Assembly: GCA_022822565.1 (NCBI GenBank)
Contig: JAJEAX010000417.1
Span: 1 to 54,891 of the forward strand
DNA: 54,891 nucleotides
Source of the DNA: Candidatus Latescibacterota bacterium
Lineage (GTDB): Bacteria > Latescibacterota > UBA2968
Direction: 5' to 3'
Below the pieces are notes generated by a model, which was given only the letters and a program-made list of their open reading frames with translations, searched no databases and had not been told where the DNA came from. A program made the position numbers and the translations under genes. This document shows positions 33,245-45,897 of this stretch, piece after piece; positions within the stretch are counted from its first letter, which is position 1; every line of letters begins with the position of its first letter.

Positions 33245-33320
33245 TGGCAGGCCAGGCAGGACTTGAACCCGCAACCGTCGGTTTTGGAGACCGATGCTCT
33301 ACCAGTTGAGCTACTGACCT
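33245..33320 (-). tRNA. tRNA-Trp (anticodon CCA)
   Basis: Hand-folded 76 nt cloverleaf. Acceptor AGGTCAG/CTGGCCT, anticodon loop CTCCAAA, T-loop GTTCAAGTC, encoded CCA end. Confidence 0.9.
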
Positions 33321-33332
33321 ACCCAAAAACAA

Positions 33333-33408
<76 letters not shown>

Positions 33409-33433
33409 GTTGGGCAATCCCCACTTGAGATTC

Positions 33434-33510
33434 TGGAGCGGGAAACGGGACTCGAACCCGCGACCCTCAGCTTGGAAGGCTGACGCTCTGGCCAACTGAG
33501 CTATTCCCGC
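33434..33510 (-). tRNA. tRNA-Gly (anticodon TCC)
   Basis: 77 nt. GCGGGAA acceptor, anticodon stem TCAGC/GCTGA with loop CTTCCAA, GGTTCGAGTCC T-arm, CCA end. Confidence 0.9.
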
Positions 33511-33520
33511 CCGACTGTGT

Positions 33521-33552
33521 ATAAAAAACGACCCTTTTCTATAAAAGGGACC
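33521..33552 (-). terminator. terminator-like hairpin 10 nt upstream of tRNA-Gly
   Basis: Minus strand CCCTTTT-ATAG-AAAAGGG followed by TCGTTTTTTAT. The location between two co-oriented tRNAs is unusual. Confidence 0.3.
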
Positions 33553-33586
33553 GGTATTGCCAAAAAATATTTTTCCGAGAATTGAC

Positions 33587-33615
33587 AAGATATGAAAAAG
33601 GGAGTCTCAGGTCAA
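33587..33615 (-). promoter_or_regulatory. internal promoter-like element in the tRNA-Tyr/tRNA-Gly spacer
   Basis: Minus strand TTGACC (33615-33610), 17 nt, TATCTT (33592-33587). Confidence 0.3.
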
Positions 33616-33708
33616 GGAGAATTTTGTATAATTCAAACCTGCGATAGATCAAAAAAGGTGAGTCGGTATCTTGTGTAAATTGTTTTGAGGGGAAACAGTT
33701 GGAGTTTT

Positions 33709-33794
33709 TGGTGGGGGGTGGCGGATTCGAACCACCGAAGGCATAAGCCAGCAGATTTACAGTCTGCCCCAGTTGGCCGCTTTGGTAACCCCCC
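33709..33794 (-). tRNA. tRNA-Tyr (anticodon GTA), long variable arm
   Basis: 86 nt. GGGGGGT acceptor, anticodon loop CTGTAAA, variable arm, GGTTCGAATCC T-arm, CCA end. Confidence 0.9.
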
Positions 33795-38577: not shown

Positions 38578-38838
38578 TTATTTCAATGGAGCTATTTTGC
38601 CGGGATCCTCTAAATCTTGCGCTCGTTCCCAAGCTGCCCGCAATTCCGCTTGATGCAAAGACGCCCAGCGAAGCACAAGTCGTTGCTCTCTTGTTGGCAA
38701 GAAGCCTTTTAGTACTTCAAGAGTTTCAATTCCAATAACTGCCTGGTTATCACCATACAGTGCGTGAAAATGCGCTGGCGGATGTTCTCTAAAATGAATT
38801 TGGATGATAATTCCGTAAAAGCGACAAAGTTCAGGCAT
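38578..38838 (-). CDS. DUF4160 domain protein
   Basis: 86 aa. [29 protein letters not shown] matches the DUF4160 signature. Overlaps the upstream gene by 8 nt. Confidence 0.75.
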
Positions 38839-39115
38839 TCTCAATCGCAACTTGTGCGCCCGACATTACTTCGTCCACAGACTTGCCCGTGAGTTCCATA
38901 TATAGCGCGTCAGAACAAATATCCAGATCATCGCCCCAGGCTATTGCACCCCCATCTGCTACGCGCACAATCTCGAAGAATGCGCGATCATTCCAGGCAG
39001 CAAACACGCCACGCCCAGCCATATCTGATAAGTCTATCTCTCCCTCGATTCCGTCCGAATAGCGCACCCAGATGCAATAACCATCACGCGGTTCCACTGC
39101 AATTGGTCGTATCAT
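38831..39115 (-). CDS. DUF2442 domain protein
   Basis: 94 aa. ...YCIWVRYSDGIEGEIDLS...ICSDALY pattern typical of DUF2442. Confidence 0.7.
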   Translation of the reverse strand: MIRPIAVEPRDGYCIWVRYSDGIEGEIDLSDMAGRGVFAAWNDRAFFEIVRVADGGAIAWGDDLDICSDALYMELTGKSVDEVMSGAQVAIENA

Positions 39116-39141
39116 TGCACTTCTCCTTTTGCTACCGTTTC

Positions 39142-39189
39142 AATTATCCTAACAAACAAAAGTGTAGCAACAACGCCATTTTGTCAACC
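39142..39189 (-). promoter_or_regulatory. conserved promoter module, copy 1 (upstream of DUF2442/DUF4160)
   Basis: Minus strand GGTTGACAAAATGGCGTTGTTGCTACACTTTTGTTTGTTAGGATAATT. TTGCTA, 17 nt, ATAATT. 42 of 49 aligned positions match copy 2. Confidence 0.5.
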
Positions 39190-39297
39190 GTATTTCAAAA
39201 TATCCCGACATTTTGGACTTGCTGCATACGTCATTTTGACATATAACTTAAGAATGGAAAGAGTCATATTTGATTCACGTCGAGGAGATCAATAAAC

Positions 39298-39705
39298 ATG
39301 ACCACTAAAGAACAATATGGAACTTCTGAACTGGAGAGGGACTTTGGACAGTTGACATTCGGAAATGCCCTATCCAGCTATCGAACAGGAGAAGAAAAAA
39401 GCCAGAGAGCGTTTGCTGGTTTTTTGGGCATTTCACCTCAAAGCCTTTGTGACATAGAAAAAGAAAGAAGGATTCCAAGCCCCAGTAGAGCAGCCAAAAT
39501 TGCCAGACAACTCGGCGAGCCAGAAAGCTTCTGGGTACAGCTTGCGTTACAGGATATGCTTCGAAAAGAAAATTTGAACCTCGTTGTTTCCATACTCGCG
39601 GAAGACTATCTGGCTCAAGAGGCGAAACAAGGTAAACGTGCGGATTTCGAAAAAGTCTTAAAGGCCGTGCCACATGTCGAACCAGCAGAACATGATCGGA
39701 TCTAA
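39298..39705 (+). CDS. XRE-family HTH transcriptional regulator (orphan)
   Basis: 135 aa. ...SQRAFAGFLGISPQSLCDIEKERRIPS... HTH_3 pattern. Confidence 0.8.
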   Translation: MTTKEQYGTSELERDFGQLTFGNALSSYRTGEEKSQRAFAGFLGISPQSLCDIEKERRIPSPSRAAKIARQLGEPESFWVQLALQDMLRKENLNLVVSILAEDYLAQEAKQGKRADFEKVLKAVPHVEPAEHDRI

Positions 39706-39862
39706 ATTCAGGCCATCTCCCAGGTTGCCCACAAAGATAGATCTATTTCATGACGTCTCTTTGCCAAATTATCCAATTGTGCCATCGCTGTCCAGATTGT
39801 ATTTCGCATTATACTGCTCATCGCCTTGACTTAACCCGAACTGTGCTACAAACTGCAAAAAA

Positions 39863-40258
39863 TCATTTCCTGAAAGAACTCTTGCTGATATACCCATATT
39901 TGCCACCGATTTTCACCCAAGCTAAGCCCTCCGAAAAAATGACGCTGATAAAGTCAAATTGCGGATTGATAACATATTTACCTGACTTGTTGATATACCC
40001 CCATCTATCACCGATTGCCACATGAGCCAATCCCTCTGAAAACAGCCAAGCATCGTCAAATTGTGGTTTGATAACATATTCTCCTGATTTGTCGATATAA
40101 CCCCACCTACTATCAATTTTCGCAGAAGCCAAACCTTCTGAAAAAGGTCGGGCATCCTCAAATTGTGGTTTGATAGCATATTGTATTTCGGCCTCAATCG
40201 AAACAGAGCGAGAAAATAACACGGTTGAGAATATCAGGATGTATAACAGCCTGGTCAT
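39863..40258 (-). CDS. secreted WG-repeat (KWG-type) protein
   Basis: 131 aa with a signal peptide and three FSEGLA...WGYI(D/N)KSG.YVI.PQF repeats. Confidence 0.75.
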   Translation of the reverse strand: MTRLLYILIFSTVLFSRSVSIEAEIQYAIKPQFEDARPFSEGLASAKIDSRWGYIDKSGEYVIKPQFDDAWLFSEGLAHVAIGDRWGYINKSGKYVINPQFDFISVIFSEGLAWVKIGGKYGYISKSSFRK

Positions 40259-40320
40259 TGCCGCACCTTCCTTTCTTGTAATTTATCCTGAAGTTTTTCC
40301 TACGTCAAAACTGTATGGCA

Positions 40321-41271
40321 TTAGTCGTTTTTGTTCTTCATGTAGTCACACCAACCGCACAAGGGAGAACTATCCAGTTCTTCCGGCAAAATGTTATCAC
40401 CGCATCTGATACATATATGCGTTGCTTCATGATCGCAGTAGGCGCACTTCCTTTCAGAGATCACATACGATTCTTTTGAGCACTCCGGGCATGAAACATA
40501 GGGAAACTCATTACCATCTGTAAACGATAGATACAGTTCCCAACTCAACTCATCCGAGATCGCTCTGGGAATCAATTCTTCGGCTGTTTCCCCATTCCCA
40601 CAAGCACGACACTGCAATGAGACTTGGTCTCGTGGGGAGTTCGTTGGTGTCGCCATCAGCAGGTCAGCTCCACACTCTACACAGTGCAGATTCTCCACTG
40701 CTCCAAAGAGAGTTGGCGAGTTCCAATCAATTGATTCTATCGTTTCATCACATGCTATACGCTCCACTTGGTAAACCTCGGCGATCTGTAGCATTTTGTC
40801 CCAAGTCCTCTCACCAAGGAGGTCCCTAGGTTCTTCGTGCAATTCTCTATCAATGAAGTCCCTGAGTAAAACAAAGGCATTGGCTATTACGCTCTTAAGT
40901 GCCTCTGCATTGATGGTTGAGTAGTAGTGTTCGACATTATTGCGGGCCTTCCGAATATTCTCGAATTTTTTCCAGTTAGTCGTGATTCCAATGGCCGAGA
41001 AACGCTCTTGAATCTGATGGCTATCTACAGTCTTTCGTCCAGTACCTACAGCGACAACCTTCCCCGCGGGATTCTTCTGGAGTTGTACTTGTGCCTTGAT
41101 CAGAACCTCATTTGATTCTGGAGGAGATTTGCGTCTTAGGGCTTCCTTGTAGAAAAGCAACAGTCCGGCATAGACATTTCGGACAGAAGCAAGCAGCCTG
41201 CGACGGCTTCCATCTTCATAGTCCTCAATCCCAACCTGAATTGCCTCAATGGCGTTTGTCAGCAAATTCAT
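40321..41271 (-). CDS. hypothetical protein: HEPN-like helical N-domain + three C-terminal zinc ribbons
   Basis: 316 aa from the ATG at 41271, 6 nt after GGAGG. RKARNNVEH fits the HEPN Rx4-6H motif. CxxC pairs: CVEC...CRAC, CPEC...CAYC, CIRC...CGWC. Confidence 0.55.
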   Translation of the reverse strand: MNLLTNAIEAIQVGIEDYEDGSRRRLLASVRNVYAGLLLFYKEALRRKSPPESNEVLIKAQVQLQKNPAGKVVAVGTGRKTVDSHQIQERFSAIGITTNWKKFENIRKARNNVEHYYSTINAEALKSVIANAFVLLRDFIDRELHEEPRDLLGERTWDKMLQIAEVYQVERIACDETIESIDWNSPTLFGAVENLHCVECGADLLMATPTNSPRDQVSLQCRACGNGETAEELIPRAISDELSWELYLSFTDGNEFPYVSCPECSKESYVISERKCAYCDHEATHICIRCGDNILPEELDSSPLCGWCDYMKNKND

Positions 41272-41376
41272 AGTGGCCTCCATATAACTCGTCAATGTAC
41301 CATGAATTACTGCCTGGGAGAACGAAGGTGAAATGCACAACGGATTTTTTTATCGAATTGCTACGAGATTTTGTTT

Positions 41377-41679
41377 TCATTTCACCAACCCCTTCTGGCG
41401 TCCGCGGCGTAGGGTGCGTTTTTGATCATTGGAACTTGAAGGATAGGCGGTGATGACGCGTCCATCTCGTATGACTACCTTGCGATTTGCAAGCCGGCTC
41501 AACGTTTGTATCTCTCGCTTTCGGATCTCGATTTCGCGGTTGGCATCCCGGTTACGCATAAAATAGGTCTCACCGTCAATCTTTGTTCCACACGCGAGAA
41601 TGATCGGAATATCTGACTTGCGAATGCCGCGCTGTTGCATGCGCGTTTTGGCAGGCCGTGTGTAGATTATGTCGGTCAT
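41377..41679 (-). CDS. DUF4258-like small protein (putative toxin component)
   Basis: 100 aa. ...TRPAKTRMQQRGI...RVITAY resembles the DUF4258 core. ATGA overlap with the upstream gene and an AAGGAGG SD. Confidence 0.5.
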   Translation of the reverse strand: MTDIIYTRPAKTRMQQRGIRKSDIPIILACGTKIDGETYFMRNRDANREIEIRKREIQTLSRLANRKVVIRDGRVITAYPSSSNDQKRTLRRGRQKGLVK

Positions 41680-42755
41680 TTGTCGCCTCCTTCTTTTTCA
41701 GTTTCGGAATTGGTCTTTTGAGAATCCACTTTCTGAGATTCCATTATTTTTTGCTTCAAATCAGGATGCTTAGATTCCATATCCTCTATATTTTGCTTCA
41801 AATCCTGCTTTGGATCCGTAGAAACTATCCCCGCGAGACTGTCCCCGTCCAAAATATCATAGATACCCGGCAATTTGTCTTCGAGCCACTTTGCACGTTT
41901 CTCACCTGCGTCTTCCGCCATCAGTTCTTCGGGAATCTCGGAAAGCCGCACATGGCCCGTTTCAAGAGTCCTTCTGGCTTTTGAGGAACCGTTAGAAATA
42001 TAGTCGAGCTCTTCTCGGCAGATGTCATAGTAGGGAAACTTGTACTGCGATCTGAAATTGAGATCCCCTTTGTCCACATCAACGACATCGGGAATGGCAA
42101 GTTCACCTGCTAAGTTTCGCAAATAGAGAACGAATGGGTTTATTTTTATCGATTCAAAGGCGGGTTCAAAGGCGTAGCCGTCAGTATCTAACAGGTCTTC
42201 ACCAAAGATATCGGCACTGGCGATAGAAGCCTTATCCCCATCGGATCCCCACTCCGCGAGTACCGCGGCCTGGCTGAATTCTGCTGACCAGGTACCGCCC
42301 GTGGCCCTTATTTCGTCCAATCGCACCAGCATGTCTTCCACCTCTTTCAATTTCTCACGTCGTTGGGCAAGACTGCCCTCAGCCAGAAGCACAAAAAAGA
42401 GCGGTGCCATGTTGATGATCTCGGTGGCATTGACACCATATCGGCGTTTGATGAGATCGTAGGCGAGTCGGGTCTTTGGCGCGATCTGTGCGCCGATCTG
42501 GACGCGGTCAGGGTTGTCGGCATGTGTCTTATCGGACTCGGGAAGCGGCAAATCGCCGGTGAGTACACCTGTATCGACGCTTAGTGCCCTGGCCAAGCCA
42601 TTCAGAGTATGCACTTGAGATTTTTGGGATCGTTGTGGCTCATTTTCCAAGCGTTGGATCGTGCGGTCAGAAATTTTAGATCGTTCAGCAAGTTTGAGGC
42701 GTGTCAGTCCTCTCTGTTCTCGTAGGGTGCGAAGGCGTTCAGGATCGATTTTCAT
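41676..42755 (-). CDS. XRE-family HTH protein with large uncharacterised C-terminal domain
   Basis: 359 aa from the ATG at 42755, 7 nt after AAGGAG. N-terminal LREQRGLTRLKLAERSKISDRTIQRLE HTH. About 290 further residues without a recognisable motif, then an acidic/lysine tail. Confidence 0.7.
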   Translation of the reverse strand: MKIDPERLRTLREQRGLTRLKLAERSKISDRTIQRLENEPQRSQKSQVHTLNGLARALSVDTGVLTGDLPLPESDKTHADNPDRVQIGAQIAPKTRLAYDLIKRRYGVNATEIINMAPLFFVLLAEGSLAQRREKLKEVEDMLVRLDEIRATGGTWSAEFSQAAVLAEWGSDGDKASIASADIFGEDLLDTDGYAFEPAFESIKINPFVLYLRNLAGELAIPDVVDVDKGDLNFRSQYKFPYYDICREELDYISNGSSKARRTLETGHVRLSEIPEELMAEDAGEKRAKWLEDKLPGIYDILDGDSLAGIVSTDPKQDLKQNIEDMESKHPDLKQKIMESQKVDSQKTNSETEKEGGDK

Positions 42756-42815
42756 GGTGAGACTCCTTGATGAAGTTTTCACGGCGAGACTGCTTAAATT
42801 TGAGATGCTGTAAAT

Positions 42816-42834
42816 GTAATAAAATTTTTATTAC
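42816..42834. promoter_or_regulatory. AT-rich perfect palindrome in the promoter region of the large XRE gene
   Basis: GTAATAAAA-T-TTTTATTAC. Confidence 0.4.
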
Positions 42835-42871
42835 GATACAATAGACAAATATTCTAAAATAATTATTTTAT

Positions 42872-42902
42872 AATAGGATATTTACGGCATAAATATCCTA
42901 TT
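42872..42902. promoter_or_regulatory. 13 bp perfect inverted repeat (candidate operator)
   Basis: AATAGGATATTTA-cggca-TAAATATCCTATT. Confidence 0.45.
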
Positions 42903-43054
42903 TAGGACATTTCGACCTCGTTCTGATCTTCTGCGGAGGTCGCCTGAAGTTGTCAGCGTCACCAAGAGAGACAAACGCGGACATTTTGATGTATTCCGCC
43001 CTCGGGCCTTATTCCTCGGATGTGGCGTGGGTTTGACCAATGCCGTCCGTTGCA

Positions 43055-43091
43055 CAAAAAAATACCGCCCTCCCGATATTGGGAGAACGGC
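43055..43091 (-). terminator. intrinsic terminator downstream of vapBC (repeat copy 1)
   Basis: Minus strand GCCGTTCTCCC-AATATC-GGGAGGGCGG-TATTTTTTTG. 37 nt identical to 44967-45003. Confidence 0.7.
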
Positions 43092-43236
43092 GTAGAATGG
43101 GCTGGTGCGCCAGCGTACAATCTTAACCGCATCAAATATCTCTTTTCTTGTCCATAATTGGTTACCTCGCACAGAGTTGTCCATGCACTCAATCAATGAT
43201 TACAAGATTTCTGAGTTTTTCCTATACTTGAGAATT

Positions 43237-43638
43237 TCACCAAATGGTTTCAACATCTGATTGCTGGATTCGATAATCTGTTGTGACAAGTGGCAGGCGG
43301 AGGTGCTGTGCTGTTGCCGCAATCATACGGTCTGGCATATCGGGTATTTGATCACGCGGAATATTTTCTAATTCTTCTGCAATCGCAAGATCAAAAGGGA
43401 CAACTTTGAATCCCGAATCGGATCGGTGCAATGTAGCTTTCAAATCAATTAAATTCTGTCTGGGCAACCGCTTTTTCTCAGTCAAGTATATAACCTCTAC
43501 AATTGTTACTGATGACACATAGACTGGGTGACCCGATGTAATGGCCTCTCGAATAGCTTGGCGAGCAACAGATGAAAGGTCTGACGATCGTGCTAAGAAC
43601 CAGATAAATGAATGCGTATCTACAACCAGAGACATCAC
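43237..43638 (-). CDS. vapC: PIN-domain toxin VapC
   Basis: 133 aa. MMSLVVDTHSFIW..., ...IVEVIY..., ...DRMIAATA..., ...VTTD acidic residues characteristic of PIN. Confidence 0.85.
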   Translation of the reverse strand: MMSLVVDTHSFIWFLARSSDLSSVARQAIREAITSGHPVYVSSVTIVEVIYLTEKKRLPRQNLIDLKATLHRSDSGFKVVPFDLAIAEELENIPRDQIPDMPDRMIAATAQHLRLPLVTTDYRIQQSDVETIW

Positions 43639-43649
43639 GCCTAATCCTT

Positions 43650-43931
43650 TTAATCAAATTTATGCCACATGTCTTTTCGGACTTCGGCTATGTCTCGGGC
43701 GGTTATTGGATTCATCTGATCCCACAGGCCTTCGGGATTAAAGAGCTTGCCTTGATCAAATTCTGACGCATCTGGTGCGTTTTCCATAGGAACGAGTTGA
43801 AAAGCCGAACCATCTTCCTGCGTAATAACCACTTTCTCTCCATTGGCCGCTTCTTTGACCAATGCCGCAAGACAGTTTTCCGCCTCTGTAAGATCAATTT
43901 TGTACATGTTTTTCGCCTCTTTGGTGTTCAT
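43650..43931 (-). CDS. vapB: antitoxin (Phd/YefM-like) of VapC
   Basis: 93 aa, or 85 aa from the ATG at 43907 which has the better SD. ...LAALVKEAANGEKVVITQEDG... pattern. Confidence 0.7.
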   Translation of the reverse strand: MNTKEAKNMYKIDLTEAENCLAALVKEAANGEKVVITQEDGSAFQLVPMENAPDASEFDQGKLFNPEGLWDQMNPITARDIAEVRKDMWHKFD

Positions 43932-43971
43932 TATTGCTTCTAACGGCTGAGTGCAATTCCCATGTAATTTT

Positions 43972-44020
43972 AATTATACCCAAAAACAAAAAGTGTCGCA
44001 ACAACGCGATATTGTCAACC
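43972..44020 (-). promoter_or_regulatory. conserved promoter module, copy 2 (upstream of vapBC)
   Basis: Minus strand GGTTGACAATATCGCGTTGTTGCGACACTTTTTGTTTTTGGGTATAATT. TTGCGA, 17 nt, TATAAT. Confidence 0.55.
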
Positions 44021-44033
44021 ACATTGCTTAAAG

Positions 44034-44753
44034 TTACACCGCTATACCAACTTGTAGCGCGGCATCATAGCCCCCTGTCGCGGCATTGGCAATCACATTT
44101 GTCAGTTGGTATTGGAATGCATTGGCTGGCGAACGAAAAAGGCCATCGTCGGTATTTTTCATGGGATTCTGTCCCCGAGCAGAATATTCCGTTGTATTGA
44201 ACACAGCCGTATTGATTTCTTCGGGAAAAGCCAATTGCGATGTTGCCGCCAATCCATTATTCAAAAAAACTTGAAAATGAATATGCGTTGCTCTGCCCGG
44301 ATACCATCCCGGATAAACCGTTGCAAATGTGGCATTTCCATTCTCGTCGCTCAACTGAATACCTCTGCAAAAAGTCTGTCCACTTGCATTGACACCACCA
44401 GGCTGATTGGAAAATCCGGAATAAACCCCACGCGTATCACAATGCCACACATCGACGCGAGCATTGACAATTGGAGTACACCCAGCATTTGCATTCACCA
44501 CTTTCAAAGTCAAATTAAGCGGCACGCCCGATGTGTCTTCCGCAATATCCCGTCGAAAATATTCGGGATTATTGCTTAAATTTAATGGAAAAGGCCCTGC
44601 TGTTTCTCGCGGTATTAAGATGCAACTTCCCTCACCCAGGAGGGGATCTTCACCACCGGTGACCGAATCCTTTTTGCAAGCCTTCATAATCAGGCCTCCA
44701 ACGCCCATCAAACCAACGCTTCCCACGCGCTTCAAAACATTCCTTCGATTCAT
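44034..44753 (-). CDS. Tat-exported intradiol ring-cleavage dioxygenase-like protein
   Basis: 239 aa. MNRRNVLKRVG twin-arginine signal. YPGWYPGRATHIHFQV motif typical of the intradiol dioxygenase fold. Confidence 0.7.
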   Translation of the reverse strand: MNRRNVLKRVGSVGLMGVGGLIMKACKKDSVTGGEDPLLGEGSCILIPRETAGPFPLNLSNNPEYFRRDIAEDTSGVPLNLTLKVVNANAGCTPIVNARVDVWHCDTRGVYSGFSNQPGGVNASGQTFCRGIQLSDENGNATFATVYPGWYPGRATHIHFQVFLNNGLAATSQLAFPEEINTAVFNTTEYSARGQNPMKNTDDGLFRSPANAFQYQLTNVIANAATGGYDAALQVGIAV

Positions 44754-44966
44754 TCTTCTTCTCCAAAATAAACGCGGTTACACAACTCTAAAATTCGATG
44801 CTCAAATCAGAAGACACACTTTATCGCCTGTCTTAGTCATTATTTGAGACACACGACAGCCCACTTCGTTCCCATGAAAATTGTAATAAACTGTTAAACT
44901 CGTTACAGTGCGTTCCTCCTTTTTCATTTAGCGGAAGAATGGGTCTTCTGTAGAGGGATCGACTGG

Positions 44967-45003
44967 CAAAAAAATACCGCCCTCCCGATATTGGGAGAAC
45001 GGC
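44967..45003 (-). terminator. intrinsic terminator downstream of the Bat operon (repeat copy 2)
   Basis: Identical 37 nt to 43055-43091, with a further ~18 nt of partial identity on the high-coordinate side. Confidence 0.7.
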
Positions 45004-45129
45004 ATTGAATGAGCTATGGCGATGGACAGGCGCTTGTGTTCTTCACATATGTAGAAAACCTGGAAGAATGGCACTCATAACTCTATATCCTTTACCAAAC
45101 GCGTTCTACGTCAAAAAATTATCGCCTTC

Positions 45130-45897
45130 TCAAATTCGCTCCAATGCCCGCGCCTCAATCCAGCCGCCGAGGCCAGAGCGCAGGCGCACCAGCAACCACC
45201 TACCTTCAACGCGCTCAATCTCGACCTTGGTGCCCTCGTGGAGCGTGAACACCTGTAAAAAATCAGAGCCGGGTCCGCTGCGGCCAATGGCCTCATCCAC
45301 CAGAATGATAGCTTTGGGAATGCTGTGTTGATGCGCCTTAAACGCCAGCATAGCCGCACTGCCCAAAAGTCCGCCAACAAAAACCACCAGCAGCACCCCC
45401 CACAGCAAACGACGGACCGGCACAAAAATCCAACACACCGCCACACCGCCTATGAAAAAAACAAACACGCAAACCATAACTGCCAGCGCGTCGAGGGTAA
45501 AAAACGCAAAAAATGCTTGCAAAACCCGCGTCAAAATATTGGCATCATCTTCGCTTTCTCGATCTATCTTCTGGGCATTGGCAAACTGCAAATTCGCCAG
45601 AACATCCCGATCGCCCGGCATCAAATTCAAAGCGCGTTCATAAGACAAAATCGCACGCCCGAGTTGCGCGTTTTTAAAATACGCATTGCCCAGATTATAA
45701 TATACCTCACCGTTGTTCAGCCCCTGTGCAACAACGCGCTCATAAGCCGAAATCGCCGCCTCAAAATCCCCGGCGCGATAGTGCTCATTGCCCCGATTGT
45801 ACAGCGCGACAAGAGCTTCTGAGGCGGATACTGCATCCACGCCAAGTATCGCAATCGCGACAACGGGGTATAACAGCCGTTTGATCACCGTCCTCAT
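45130..45897 (-). CDS. batE: BatE-like TPR + SH3b membrane protein
   Basis: 255 aa from the ATG at 45897, 2 nt after the batD stop. TPR repeats, TM segments, C-terminal SH3-like ...GWIEARALERI. Confidence 0.75.
   Translation of the reverse strand: MRTVIKRLLYPVVAIAILGVDAVSASEALVALYNRGNEHYRAGDFEAAISAYERVVAQGLNNGEVYYNLGNAYFKNAQLGRAILSYERALNLMPGDRDVLANLQFANAQKIDRESEDDANILTRVLQAFFAFFTLDALAVMVCVFVFFIGGVAVCWIFVPVRRLLWGVLLVVFVGGLLGSAAMLAFKAHQHSIPKAIILVDEAIGRSGPGSDFLQVFTLHEGTKVEIERVEGRWLLVRLRSGLGGWIEARALERI

Follow-up and report, generated by a model that had tools for sequence, protein, structure and literature searches.

Do four neighbouring genes on one strand make up a single defence system, or are they separate units that lie next to one another? 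The question is raised by a 2.9-kb stretch (39863–42782) of contig JAJEAX010000417.1 from a Candidatus Latescibacterota bacterium (assembly GCA_022822565.1), whose 54,891 nucleotides (nt) were analysed at full length and are called the window here. A first-pass annotation, made from the letters of the DNA, had described the stretch as an uncharacterised four-gene cluster that looks like a toxin–antitoxin (TA) or abortive-infection module and is a candidate for a novel system, with genes for a large XRE-family helix-turn-helix (HTH) protein, a DUF4258-like protein, a HEPN-like protein with three zinc ribbons and a WG-repeat protein. In this study, the four minus-strand open reading frames were confirmed, as were the features that had been listed with them: the ATGA overlap, the Shine–Dalgarno sites, the Rx4H motif, the three zinc ribbons and the palindromes. 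Their joint interpretation as one co-conserved system did not hold. The stretch is probably a mosaic, in which three independently inherited modules lie side by side in a variable TA/defence island: an XRE–DUF4258 gene pair, a HEPN/zinc-ribbon gene of the PDC-S64 family (PDC, phage defence candidate) and a WG-repeat gene. This estimate applies jointly to the whole of our reading, including the functions proposed in the Discussion. The genes add further members to families that are already known, though uncharacterised.

Results

Homologues of the 316-aa HEPN/zinc-ribbon protein were sought with one genome per species, which gave 80 genome loci. The protein has 111 homologues across many phyla, and the 80 loci belong to Latescibacterota (76–80% identity), Acidobacteriota, Gemmatimonadota, Verrucomicrobiota, Proteobacteria, Cyanobacteria and Bacteroidota. 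XRE and DUF4258 genes were found beside the PDC-S64 gene (tblastn) in one of the 80, a close Latescibacterota relative with the same chromosomal site (L004; L numbers denote the loci compared with the window), and the other cases of the trio (L001–L003) are metagenome contigs of equally close relatives. Conservation of the XRE/DUF4258/HEPN trio across genomes, which the first-pass annotation had named as a check of its proposal, was thus not observed. Clustering of the neighbours within 6 kb revealed no family in more than six of the 80 loci, and the recurrent families reflect genus-level synteny. The upstream neighbour is co-directional and within 200 nt in 50 of 77 PDC-S64 loci. Upstream neighbours that are close and co-directional yet unrelated are what marks a gene lying inside operons of other kinds. 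The idea that the PDC-S64 gene has a hidden partner on its upstream side, obscured by fast evolution, was considered and rejected, because the immediate neighbours are unrelated to each other even in a permissive test.

The company that the homologues keep is of a mobile and defence-related kind. Among the neighbours sampled, methyltransferase, specificity and restriction subunits of type I restriction–modification (R-M) systems adjoin homologues in L022, L023 and L026, pAgo adjoins one in L045 and Ppl another in L038. Homologues are also carried by 11 viral contigs and by 14 plasmids, one of which (a Methylomonas plasmid) has its copy beside an Hma-like helicase/DUF1156/DUF499 cluster. The neighbours of the PDC-S64 gene in the window are TA pairs, not R-M genes.

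DNA alignment of the closest relatives locates the boundaries of the insertion, which are clean. In the window, which comes from a Latescibacterota-type genome, the island lies between a Bat operon and a PALP/threonine-synthase-like gene. L099, which has the closest XRE protein, occupies the same Bat–PALP site, and its pair is followed directly by a 384-aa WG-repeat protein, with no HEPN gene. Its DNA and that of the window agree as far as the stop codon of the DUF4258 gene, and the agreement resumes about 55 nt before the WG start. The interval between these points consists of about 70 unrelated nt in L099, whereas in the window and L001 it is an indel block of about 1.06 kb that contains the HEPN/zinc-ribbon gene (Table 1). 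The identities of the modules are incongruent between relatives. Relative to the window, the HEPN/zinc-ribbon protein is 90% identical and the XRE protein 58% identical in L001, the figures are 80% and 78% in L004, and in L099 the former gene is absent and XRE is 86% identical. In another relative, L015, the pair is not intact although the HEPN gene is present, and the sequence in common with the window before the ATG of that gene extends over about 30 nt only. The L015 locus (L015:7416–8947), from a Latescibacterota genome and at the same Bat-operon site, has an arrangement of its own: a DUF4258 remnant of about 40 nt (EIEIRKREIQT) stands directly after the 49-nt hairpin element described below, and an opposite-strand HTH gene and then a split PDC-S64 gene follow.

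The XRE and DUF4258 genes are conserved as a pair. In each related locus whose sequence extends far enough downstream, the XRE gene is overlapped or immediately followed by a DUF4258-like gene of 92–104 aa; the pair is present in the window, L001–L004, L084–L090, L093–L100 and L103–L105. A single 6.34-Mb contig (ERZ25068511) contains three paralogous pairs (L096, L097 and L098), with two WD40 giants and TmtA as their cargo. In the window, the XRE stop codon TGA (41678–41676) overlaps the DUF4258 start codon ATG (41679–41677) as ATGA, and GGAGG lies 6 nt upstream. A small putative toxin and a DNA-binding partner whose genes are adjacent, overlapping and conserved as a pair are in keeping with a type II TA module. 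The TA layout that had been read from the window, with the antitoxin first, a start/stop overlap, an HTH partner and a palindromic site, is therefore upheld for these two genes, as is the remark that the antitoxin-like protein is unusually large (359 aa in the window, 320–390 aa across the pairs).

Both ends of the pair module can be recognised by alignment. At the 5′ end, about 350 nt upstream of XRE show a mean column identity of 77% in a six-locus alignment that includes three paralogues of one genome. At the 3′ end, a tail of about 25 nt after the DUF4258 stop is kept in the window, L001, L004, L096 and L098; beyond it, the loci diverge with each cargo. The cargo is PDC-S64 in the window, L001 and L004, and the 384-aa WG-repeat protein in L099. 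L098 has a protein matching the PADLOC TmtA model (E=2e-120), which we take to be that of the Tiamat system, and a 77% identical protein stands in L100. In L087 and L104 the pair is followed by a ResIII helicase similar to type IV restriction enzymes, which in L004 is displaced downstream; a small protein and a WD40 giant follow in L096, L097, L103 and L105, and a SocA/Panacea pair follows in L089. A literature search on PDC-S64, and on Tiamat with TmtA, found nothing. The small proteins between pair and WD40 giant in L097 (L097:6460–7065, 201 aa) and L103 (L103:6337–7026, 229 aa) are 72% identical and contain the motif RNEFVH/RNKFIH, which may be another HEPN-type Rx4H site.

Within the upstream region, a perfect inverted repeat with 13-nt arms is kept in the window, L004, L096 and L097. 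Between the window (T..A) and L097 (C..G) both arms have changed and the symmetry is still perfect, which supports a dimeric-repressor site or a hairpin. From these alignments, we infer that the palindrome is a candidate XRE binding site. Two AT-rich inverted repeats nearby (42816–42834 and 42850–42875) are less conserved across the paralogues than the 13-nt palindrome and may have arisen by chance in AT-rich DNA.

The 5′ edge of the conserved upstream region is marked by a 49-nt element with a terminator-like site (43091–43064; 11 pairs, then a T-run). Together with a second copy (94% identical) close to the Bat operon on its downstream side, it brackets a dioxygenase-like/Phd/PIN block. The element is found about 310–340 nt upstream of the XRE start in L001, L003, L004, L096, L098, L099, L103 and L105. 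Possible identities of this element are a shared terminator, a repeat of the REP type and a site of recombination at the borders of island cassettes. No same-strand terminator was found after the XRE–DUF4258 pair in the loci checked, the window included.

The XRE protein has 683 homologues; a metagenome scan for its relatives gave 12 loci, and a scan of viral contigs found none. The HTH (residues 1–65; Pfam HTH_31/HTH_3 at residues 7–61) is followed by a conserved helical region of about 200 aa with no known fold, a hypervariable segment at residues 141–205 and a conserved acidic tail formed by the last 16 or so residues. The hypervariable segment (42141–42335) is 23% identical to that of L004, compared with 88–93% for its flanks. 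At least four sequence types of the segment occur among the homologues, and the types do not track the downstream cargo. An AlphaFold (AF2) model of the protein (pLDDT 64.7) is confident in the HTH only, and the matches among solved structures are HTH domains only, the best being the N-terminal domain of CapH (7t5u; 43% identity, target TM 0.82). The C-terminal part of about 290 aa gave no recognisable fold in a fold search with the AF2 model or in single-sequence and profile searches of the PDB. A fusion of XRE to an ImmA/IrrE-type domain (PADLOC RmrA) was tried as an explanation and rejected, since the matches cover the HTH alone and the sequence contains no HExxH motif.

The DUF4258-like protein of the window falls just under the 25-bit Pfam cut-off for PF14076 (E=7.7e-5, 23.4 bits). 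That family is matched by 10 of 12 locus relatives (best E=4e-8) and carried by most of the 120 DUF4258-like homologues, some of which are named DUF4258 by NCBI. DUF4258 has been listed among the BECR-fold RelE/ParE-superfamily toxin families, with antitoxin-then-toxin gene order and unknown activity (PMC11980606). PDB searches found no relative of the protein. His9, within the motif HAxxRMxQRG, is present in 116 of 117 aligned homologues, and Pro stands there in the window copy only (codon 9, 41653–41655), which also carries the substitutions Q33K and D36G, both at sites where conservation exceeds 90%. Since a near-invariant histidine has been replaced by proline, the window copy is probably an attenuated or inactivated toxin.

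The 316-aa protein, whose ATG is preceded at 6 nt by GGAGG, matches PADLOC PDC-S64 model PDLC05058 with E=8.9e-47 (residues 2–283 against positions 9–285 of a 305-position profile) and the second PDC-S64 model PDLC05059 with E=8.7e-11; 40 of 40 and 39 of 40 aligned homologues, respectively, match these models. It contains R110-N-N-V-E114-H115, in which R110, N111, E114 and H115 are invariant in the 40 homologues, and six CxxC pairs (197/200, 221/224, 261/264, 276/279, 287/290 and 305/308) that make up three C-terminal zinc ribbons; a DZR zinc ribbon was recognised in 27 of the 40 family members. The protein had thus been rightly described as HEPN-like, with three zinc ribbons and a link to defence. 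The accompanying statement that this architecture matches no defence system has to be withdrawn in view of the PDC-S64 models and of HEC-08, a validated system of the same architecture.

An AF2 model of the 316-aa protein, made from 40 sequences, has a pLDDT of 92.1 and a pTM of 0.79. Its best PDB fold matches are all HEPN proteins and all have E>0.1: 2hsb (probability 0.84, target TM 0.63), 8xeh_D (0.59) and 1wty (0.51). The predicted HEPN domain has a beta-hairpin insertion at residues 59–81. The HEPN assignment is likely, not proven. The best fold match in BFVD is an uncharacterised siphovirus protein, and Pfam, NCBIfam and PHROGs gave nothing beyond zinc-ribbon fragments.

The WG-repeat protein matches PF14903 (WG_beta_rep; Pfam) with E=4.5e-36 over three repeats. 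It has 131 aa in the window versus 384 aa in L001 and L099, and the short form can be aligned with the N-terminal as well as the C-terminal part of the 384-aa protein of L001, so that internal repeats have been deleted in the window. An upstream region with a TTGACG –35-like site is common to the window and L099, where the WG gene directly follows the pair. As to the suggestion that this gene may have its own promoter, it is a separate unit with an upstream region of its own, and the site found there (40308–40280) is –35/–10-like. Promoter-like sites across the region are, however, not clearly enriched (nine found versus 5.3 ± 2.2 in shuffled sequences).

Features of the locus and its surroundings

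The features of the locus and of its flanks are collected in Table 1. Ordinary TA pairs of the Phd/PIN, Gp49/HTH and DUF2442/DUF4160 types are abundant in islands of this kind. A Gp49/HTH pair was observed directly upstream of the XRE module in L103 and L105. An Rfam search over 39000–45500 gave no credible match; a single SAM-III match lay far below the threshold and was taken as chance.

Table 1. Positions of genes, sequence elements and flanking units in the window
Feature	Position	Strand	Remark
DUF4160/DUF2442 TA-like unit	38578–39115	minus	flank of island
HigA-like HTH gene, apparently orphan	39298–39705	plus	flank of island
Secreted WG-repeat protein, 131 aa	39863–40258	minus	separate unit
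Indel block of ~1.06 kb with HEPN/zinc-ribbon gene	40312–41376	minus	DNA alignment; in window, L001 and L004, not in L099
PDC-S64-family protein, 316 aa from ATG (339 aa from TTG at 41340)	40321–41271	minus	predicted RNase defence effector
Conserved ~25-nt tail after DUF4258 stop	41352–41376	minus	3′ end of pair module; alignment
DUF4258-family small basic protein, 100 aa	41377–41679	minus	putative RelE/ParE-superfamily toxin
XRE-family HTH protein, 359 aa from ATG (368 aa from GTG at 42782)	41676–42755	minus	putative antitoxin/repressor
Conserved non-coding upstream region, promoter/operator and leader, ATTTAAGCAGTCTC..GAAAACTT..AAGGAG	42756–43054	minus	alignment
AT-rich inverted repeat, perfect 9-nt arms	42816–42834 (arms 42816–42824/42826–42834)		repeat search
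AT-rich inverted repeat, 13 nt, 92%	42850–42875		repeat search
Candidate operator, perfect 13-nt inverted repeat AATAGGATATTTA-N5-TAAATATCCTATT	42872–42902 (arms 42872–42884/42890–42902)		repeat search
Hairpin and T-run (terminator-like) repeat, 49 nt	43055–43103	minus	5′ edge of conserved XRE upstream region
Phd-like/PIN TA-like unit	43237–43931	minus	flank of island
Second hairpin-repeat copy (direct-repeat family D1)	44967–45015	minus	just downstream of Bat operon
tRNA cluster (Trp, Thr, Gly, Tyr)	33245–33794	minus	~5.4 kb from island

Discussion

Our results are best accommodated by the following model, whose functional steps are predictions; what the data show directly is the content of genes, the families to which they belong, the conservation of the pair but not of the trio, and the ends of the indel. 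The XRE–DUF4258 pair would be a self-contained bicistronic unit with its own upstream region of about 350 nt, autoregulated in the manner of a type II TA system. A dimer of the XRE protein may bind the conserved palindrome and so repress the operon, and neutralisation may come about through binding of the small basic DUF4258 protein by the long C-terminal region of the XRE protein. The DUF4258 protein is predicted to be an RNase with the BECR fold of the RelE/ParE superfamily, and its window copy, with His9 lost, would be of reduced activity. The insertion of about 1.06 kb would encode a PDC-S64 member acting as a stand-alone RNase of the abortive-infection type, in which the RNxxEH site of the HEPN domain would cleave RNA and the three zinc ribbons may serve as the nucleic-acid- or trigger-binding part, in analogy to HEC-08. 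With no terminator between the modules, transcription that starts at the XRE promoter may continue into the PDC-S64 gene, which would nevertheless not depend on the pair. The WG-repeat protein, predicted to be secreted and equipped with its own upstream region, would be functionally unrelated to its neighbours.

Several points weigh against this model. In L015, the one close relative in which the pair is deleted, the PDC-S64 gene is frameshifted (204 + 112 aa); this is a single case, and it could reflect the decay of both modules or an error of long-read assembly. The best match to a HEPN fold has a poor Foldseek E-value (0.7), and searches of the PDB by sequence, with the single protein or with a profile, find zinc ribbons only. 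The role of the XRE C-terminal region as the antitoxin part is a guess, as no recognisable fold was found there. More generally, the toxicity, neutralisation, RNase activity and defence that we ascribe to these proteins are predicted from their sequences, and PDC-S64 itself is an untested candidate. Finally, all loci examined have a co-directional gene behind the pair, a 4-nt overlap of this gene with the DUF4258 stop is seen in L095, L103, L104 and L105, and no same-strand terminator stands after the pair, so the pair may be functionally tied to its downstream cargo and not fully autonomous.

These last observations also speak for another explanation, in which the pair is not an autonomous addiction module but a portable regulatory front end that gates downstream cargo, here PDC-S64, much as regulators of the CapH/CapP or BrxR/CapW type are placed before varied defence systems. 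Stress or infection would relieve the repression by XRE and the cargo would be switched on by read-through. Also in favour of this explanation are the recurrence of conflict-related cargo (PDC-S64, TmtA, the ResIII helicase and WD40 giants preceded by small proteins), a terminator-like hairpin that would insulate the 5′ side while the 3′ side is left without one, and an XRE HTH that is closest to that of CapH (7t5u). However, PDC-S64 occurs without the pair in 79 of the 80 genome loci, and the next gene in L099 is a non-defence WG-repeat protein. There is also no co-evolution of XRE and cargo, since the same cargo stands behind three types of the XRE variable segment, and a given XRE type may have this cargo in one locus and lack it in another. 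Moreover, islands rich in ordinary TA pairs fit a plain hotspot, and, with the general bias towards operons taken into account, chance would produce 8 to 15 co-directional loci with a probability that is only modestly low. We regard gating of this kind as unlikely, although it is the most serious competitor of the modular reading.

A more far-reaching form of the same idea, to which we give slightly less credence still, holds that a long-XRE/DUF4258 head, consisting of an insulating hairpin, a palindromic operator, a repressor and a BECR protein, is portable and autoregulated, and captures diverse immune cargo of one or several genes and controls its expression. The point of entry for new cassettes would be directly behind the DUF4258 stop, and the hypervariable residues 141–205 of XRE would act as a diversifying sensor. 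If this were true, Latescibacterota and genomes of the Gemmatimonadota type would contain defence-regulator modules of a new class.

It is very improbable that the locus has nothing to do with defence, with the HEPN/zinc-ribbon protein as a housekeeping nucleic-acid-binding or RNA-processing factor and the pair as an ordinary transcription-factor operon. Some homologues are named after ribosomal or RNA-polymerase zinc-ribbon proteins, the PDB profile matches are to the ribbons of eL37 and RPA12, and no phenotype has been reported; but the names given in the source databases reflect only short ribbon motifs, and the gene has a patchy, mobile distribution, with copies on plasmids and viral contigs, in type I R-M operons and next to pAgo, instead of the conserved synteny of a core-genome gene. 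The occurrence of the pair in several copies within one genome is likewise typical of TA-like elements. Least probable of all is an obligate three- or four-component TA or abortive-infection system of a new type, composed of XRE, DUF4258 and HEPN with or without WG, since the shared strand, short spacers, absence of terminators, retention of the trio at the same site in three or four close relatives and coincidence of pair loss with a frameshifted HEPN gene in L015 are outweighed by the confinement of the trio to near relatives at one syntenic site (one of 80 genome loci plus metagenome contigs), by a genome with the closest XRE but no HEPN gene (L099), by the occurrence of the pair with at least five other types of cargo, by the incongruent module identities and by a WG gene with a separate upstream region and a product that varies between 131 and 384 aa.

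The reading as a mosaic of separate modules removes a false novel four-gene system from the list of candidates and places each gene in a catalogued family. PDC-S64, being widespread and mobile, with an invariant RNxxEH motif, three zinc ribbons and the architecture of HEC-08, becomes a straightforward target for testing. DUF4258 toxins gain here a distinct long XRE partner, which belongs to a multi-copy family with a hypervariable segment. The recurrent position of the pair before different defence genes provides a testable lead on the regulation or stabilisation of defence cassettes in phyla that have received little study.

Comparison with known systems

Regulators of the CapH/CapP and BrxR/CapW types sit before varied defence systems. 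The pair studied here resembles CapH/CapP in that its HTH is closest to the CapH N-terminal domain (7t5u) and in being a two-gene unit upstream of diverse defence genes. However, the PADLOC capH match covers only the HTH of the XRE protein (residues 2–69), and the partner is a BECR-like DUF4258 protein instead of the CapP metallopeptidase, no peptidase family being matched. BrxR/CapW differ in their WYL domain, which the XRE protein lacks.

The likeness to DUF4258 TA modules lies in the PF14076 family match, the overlapping genes in antitoxin-then-toxin order (PMC11980606), the HTH partner and the palindromic upstream site. Reported DUF4258 partners are short, for example HicB-type in Synechocystis (PMC4963859) and MqsA fusions (PMC11980606), whereas the partner found here has 320–390 aa, with an extension of about 290 aa without known fold and a hypervariable segment. 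In addition, large cargo genes of the same direction regularly stand after the pair, and the DUF4258 copy of the window lacks His9 and lies below the Pfam cut-off.

For the 316-aa protein, the closest catalogued relatives are the PDC-S64 proteins. PDCs comprise 145 untested phage defence candidates, defined by the position of their genes inside BREX, DISARM or type I R-M loci (Payne et al., bioRxiv 10.1101/2024.01.29.577857). The window protein shares with PDC-S64 a full-length model match, a stand-alone gene with no conserved partner and homologues embedded in type I R-M loci; it differs in that its gene stands behind a TA-like pair in a TA-rich island and not inside an R-M, BREX or DISARM locus. 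HEC-08, which combines HEPN with zinc fingers, has been validated experimentally, and the histidine of its Rx4-6H motif is needed for defence (bioRxiv 10.1101/2024.01.29.577857). The two proteins agree in domain order (an N-terminal HEPN domain with Rx4-6H, then several C-terminal zinc ribbons), are of similar size and are each encoded by a single gene. However, the HEC-08 model gave E=0.076 for the window protein and E≤0.1 in two of 40 family members (best 0.074); DUF3644 was matched by one of the 40, and a Pfam search for it in the 316-aa protein gave no match. With no convincing sequence relationship between the two, HEC-08 is best regarded as an analogue of the same architecture, possibly a very distant homologue, and we file the 316-aa protein under PDC-S64.

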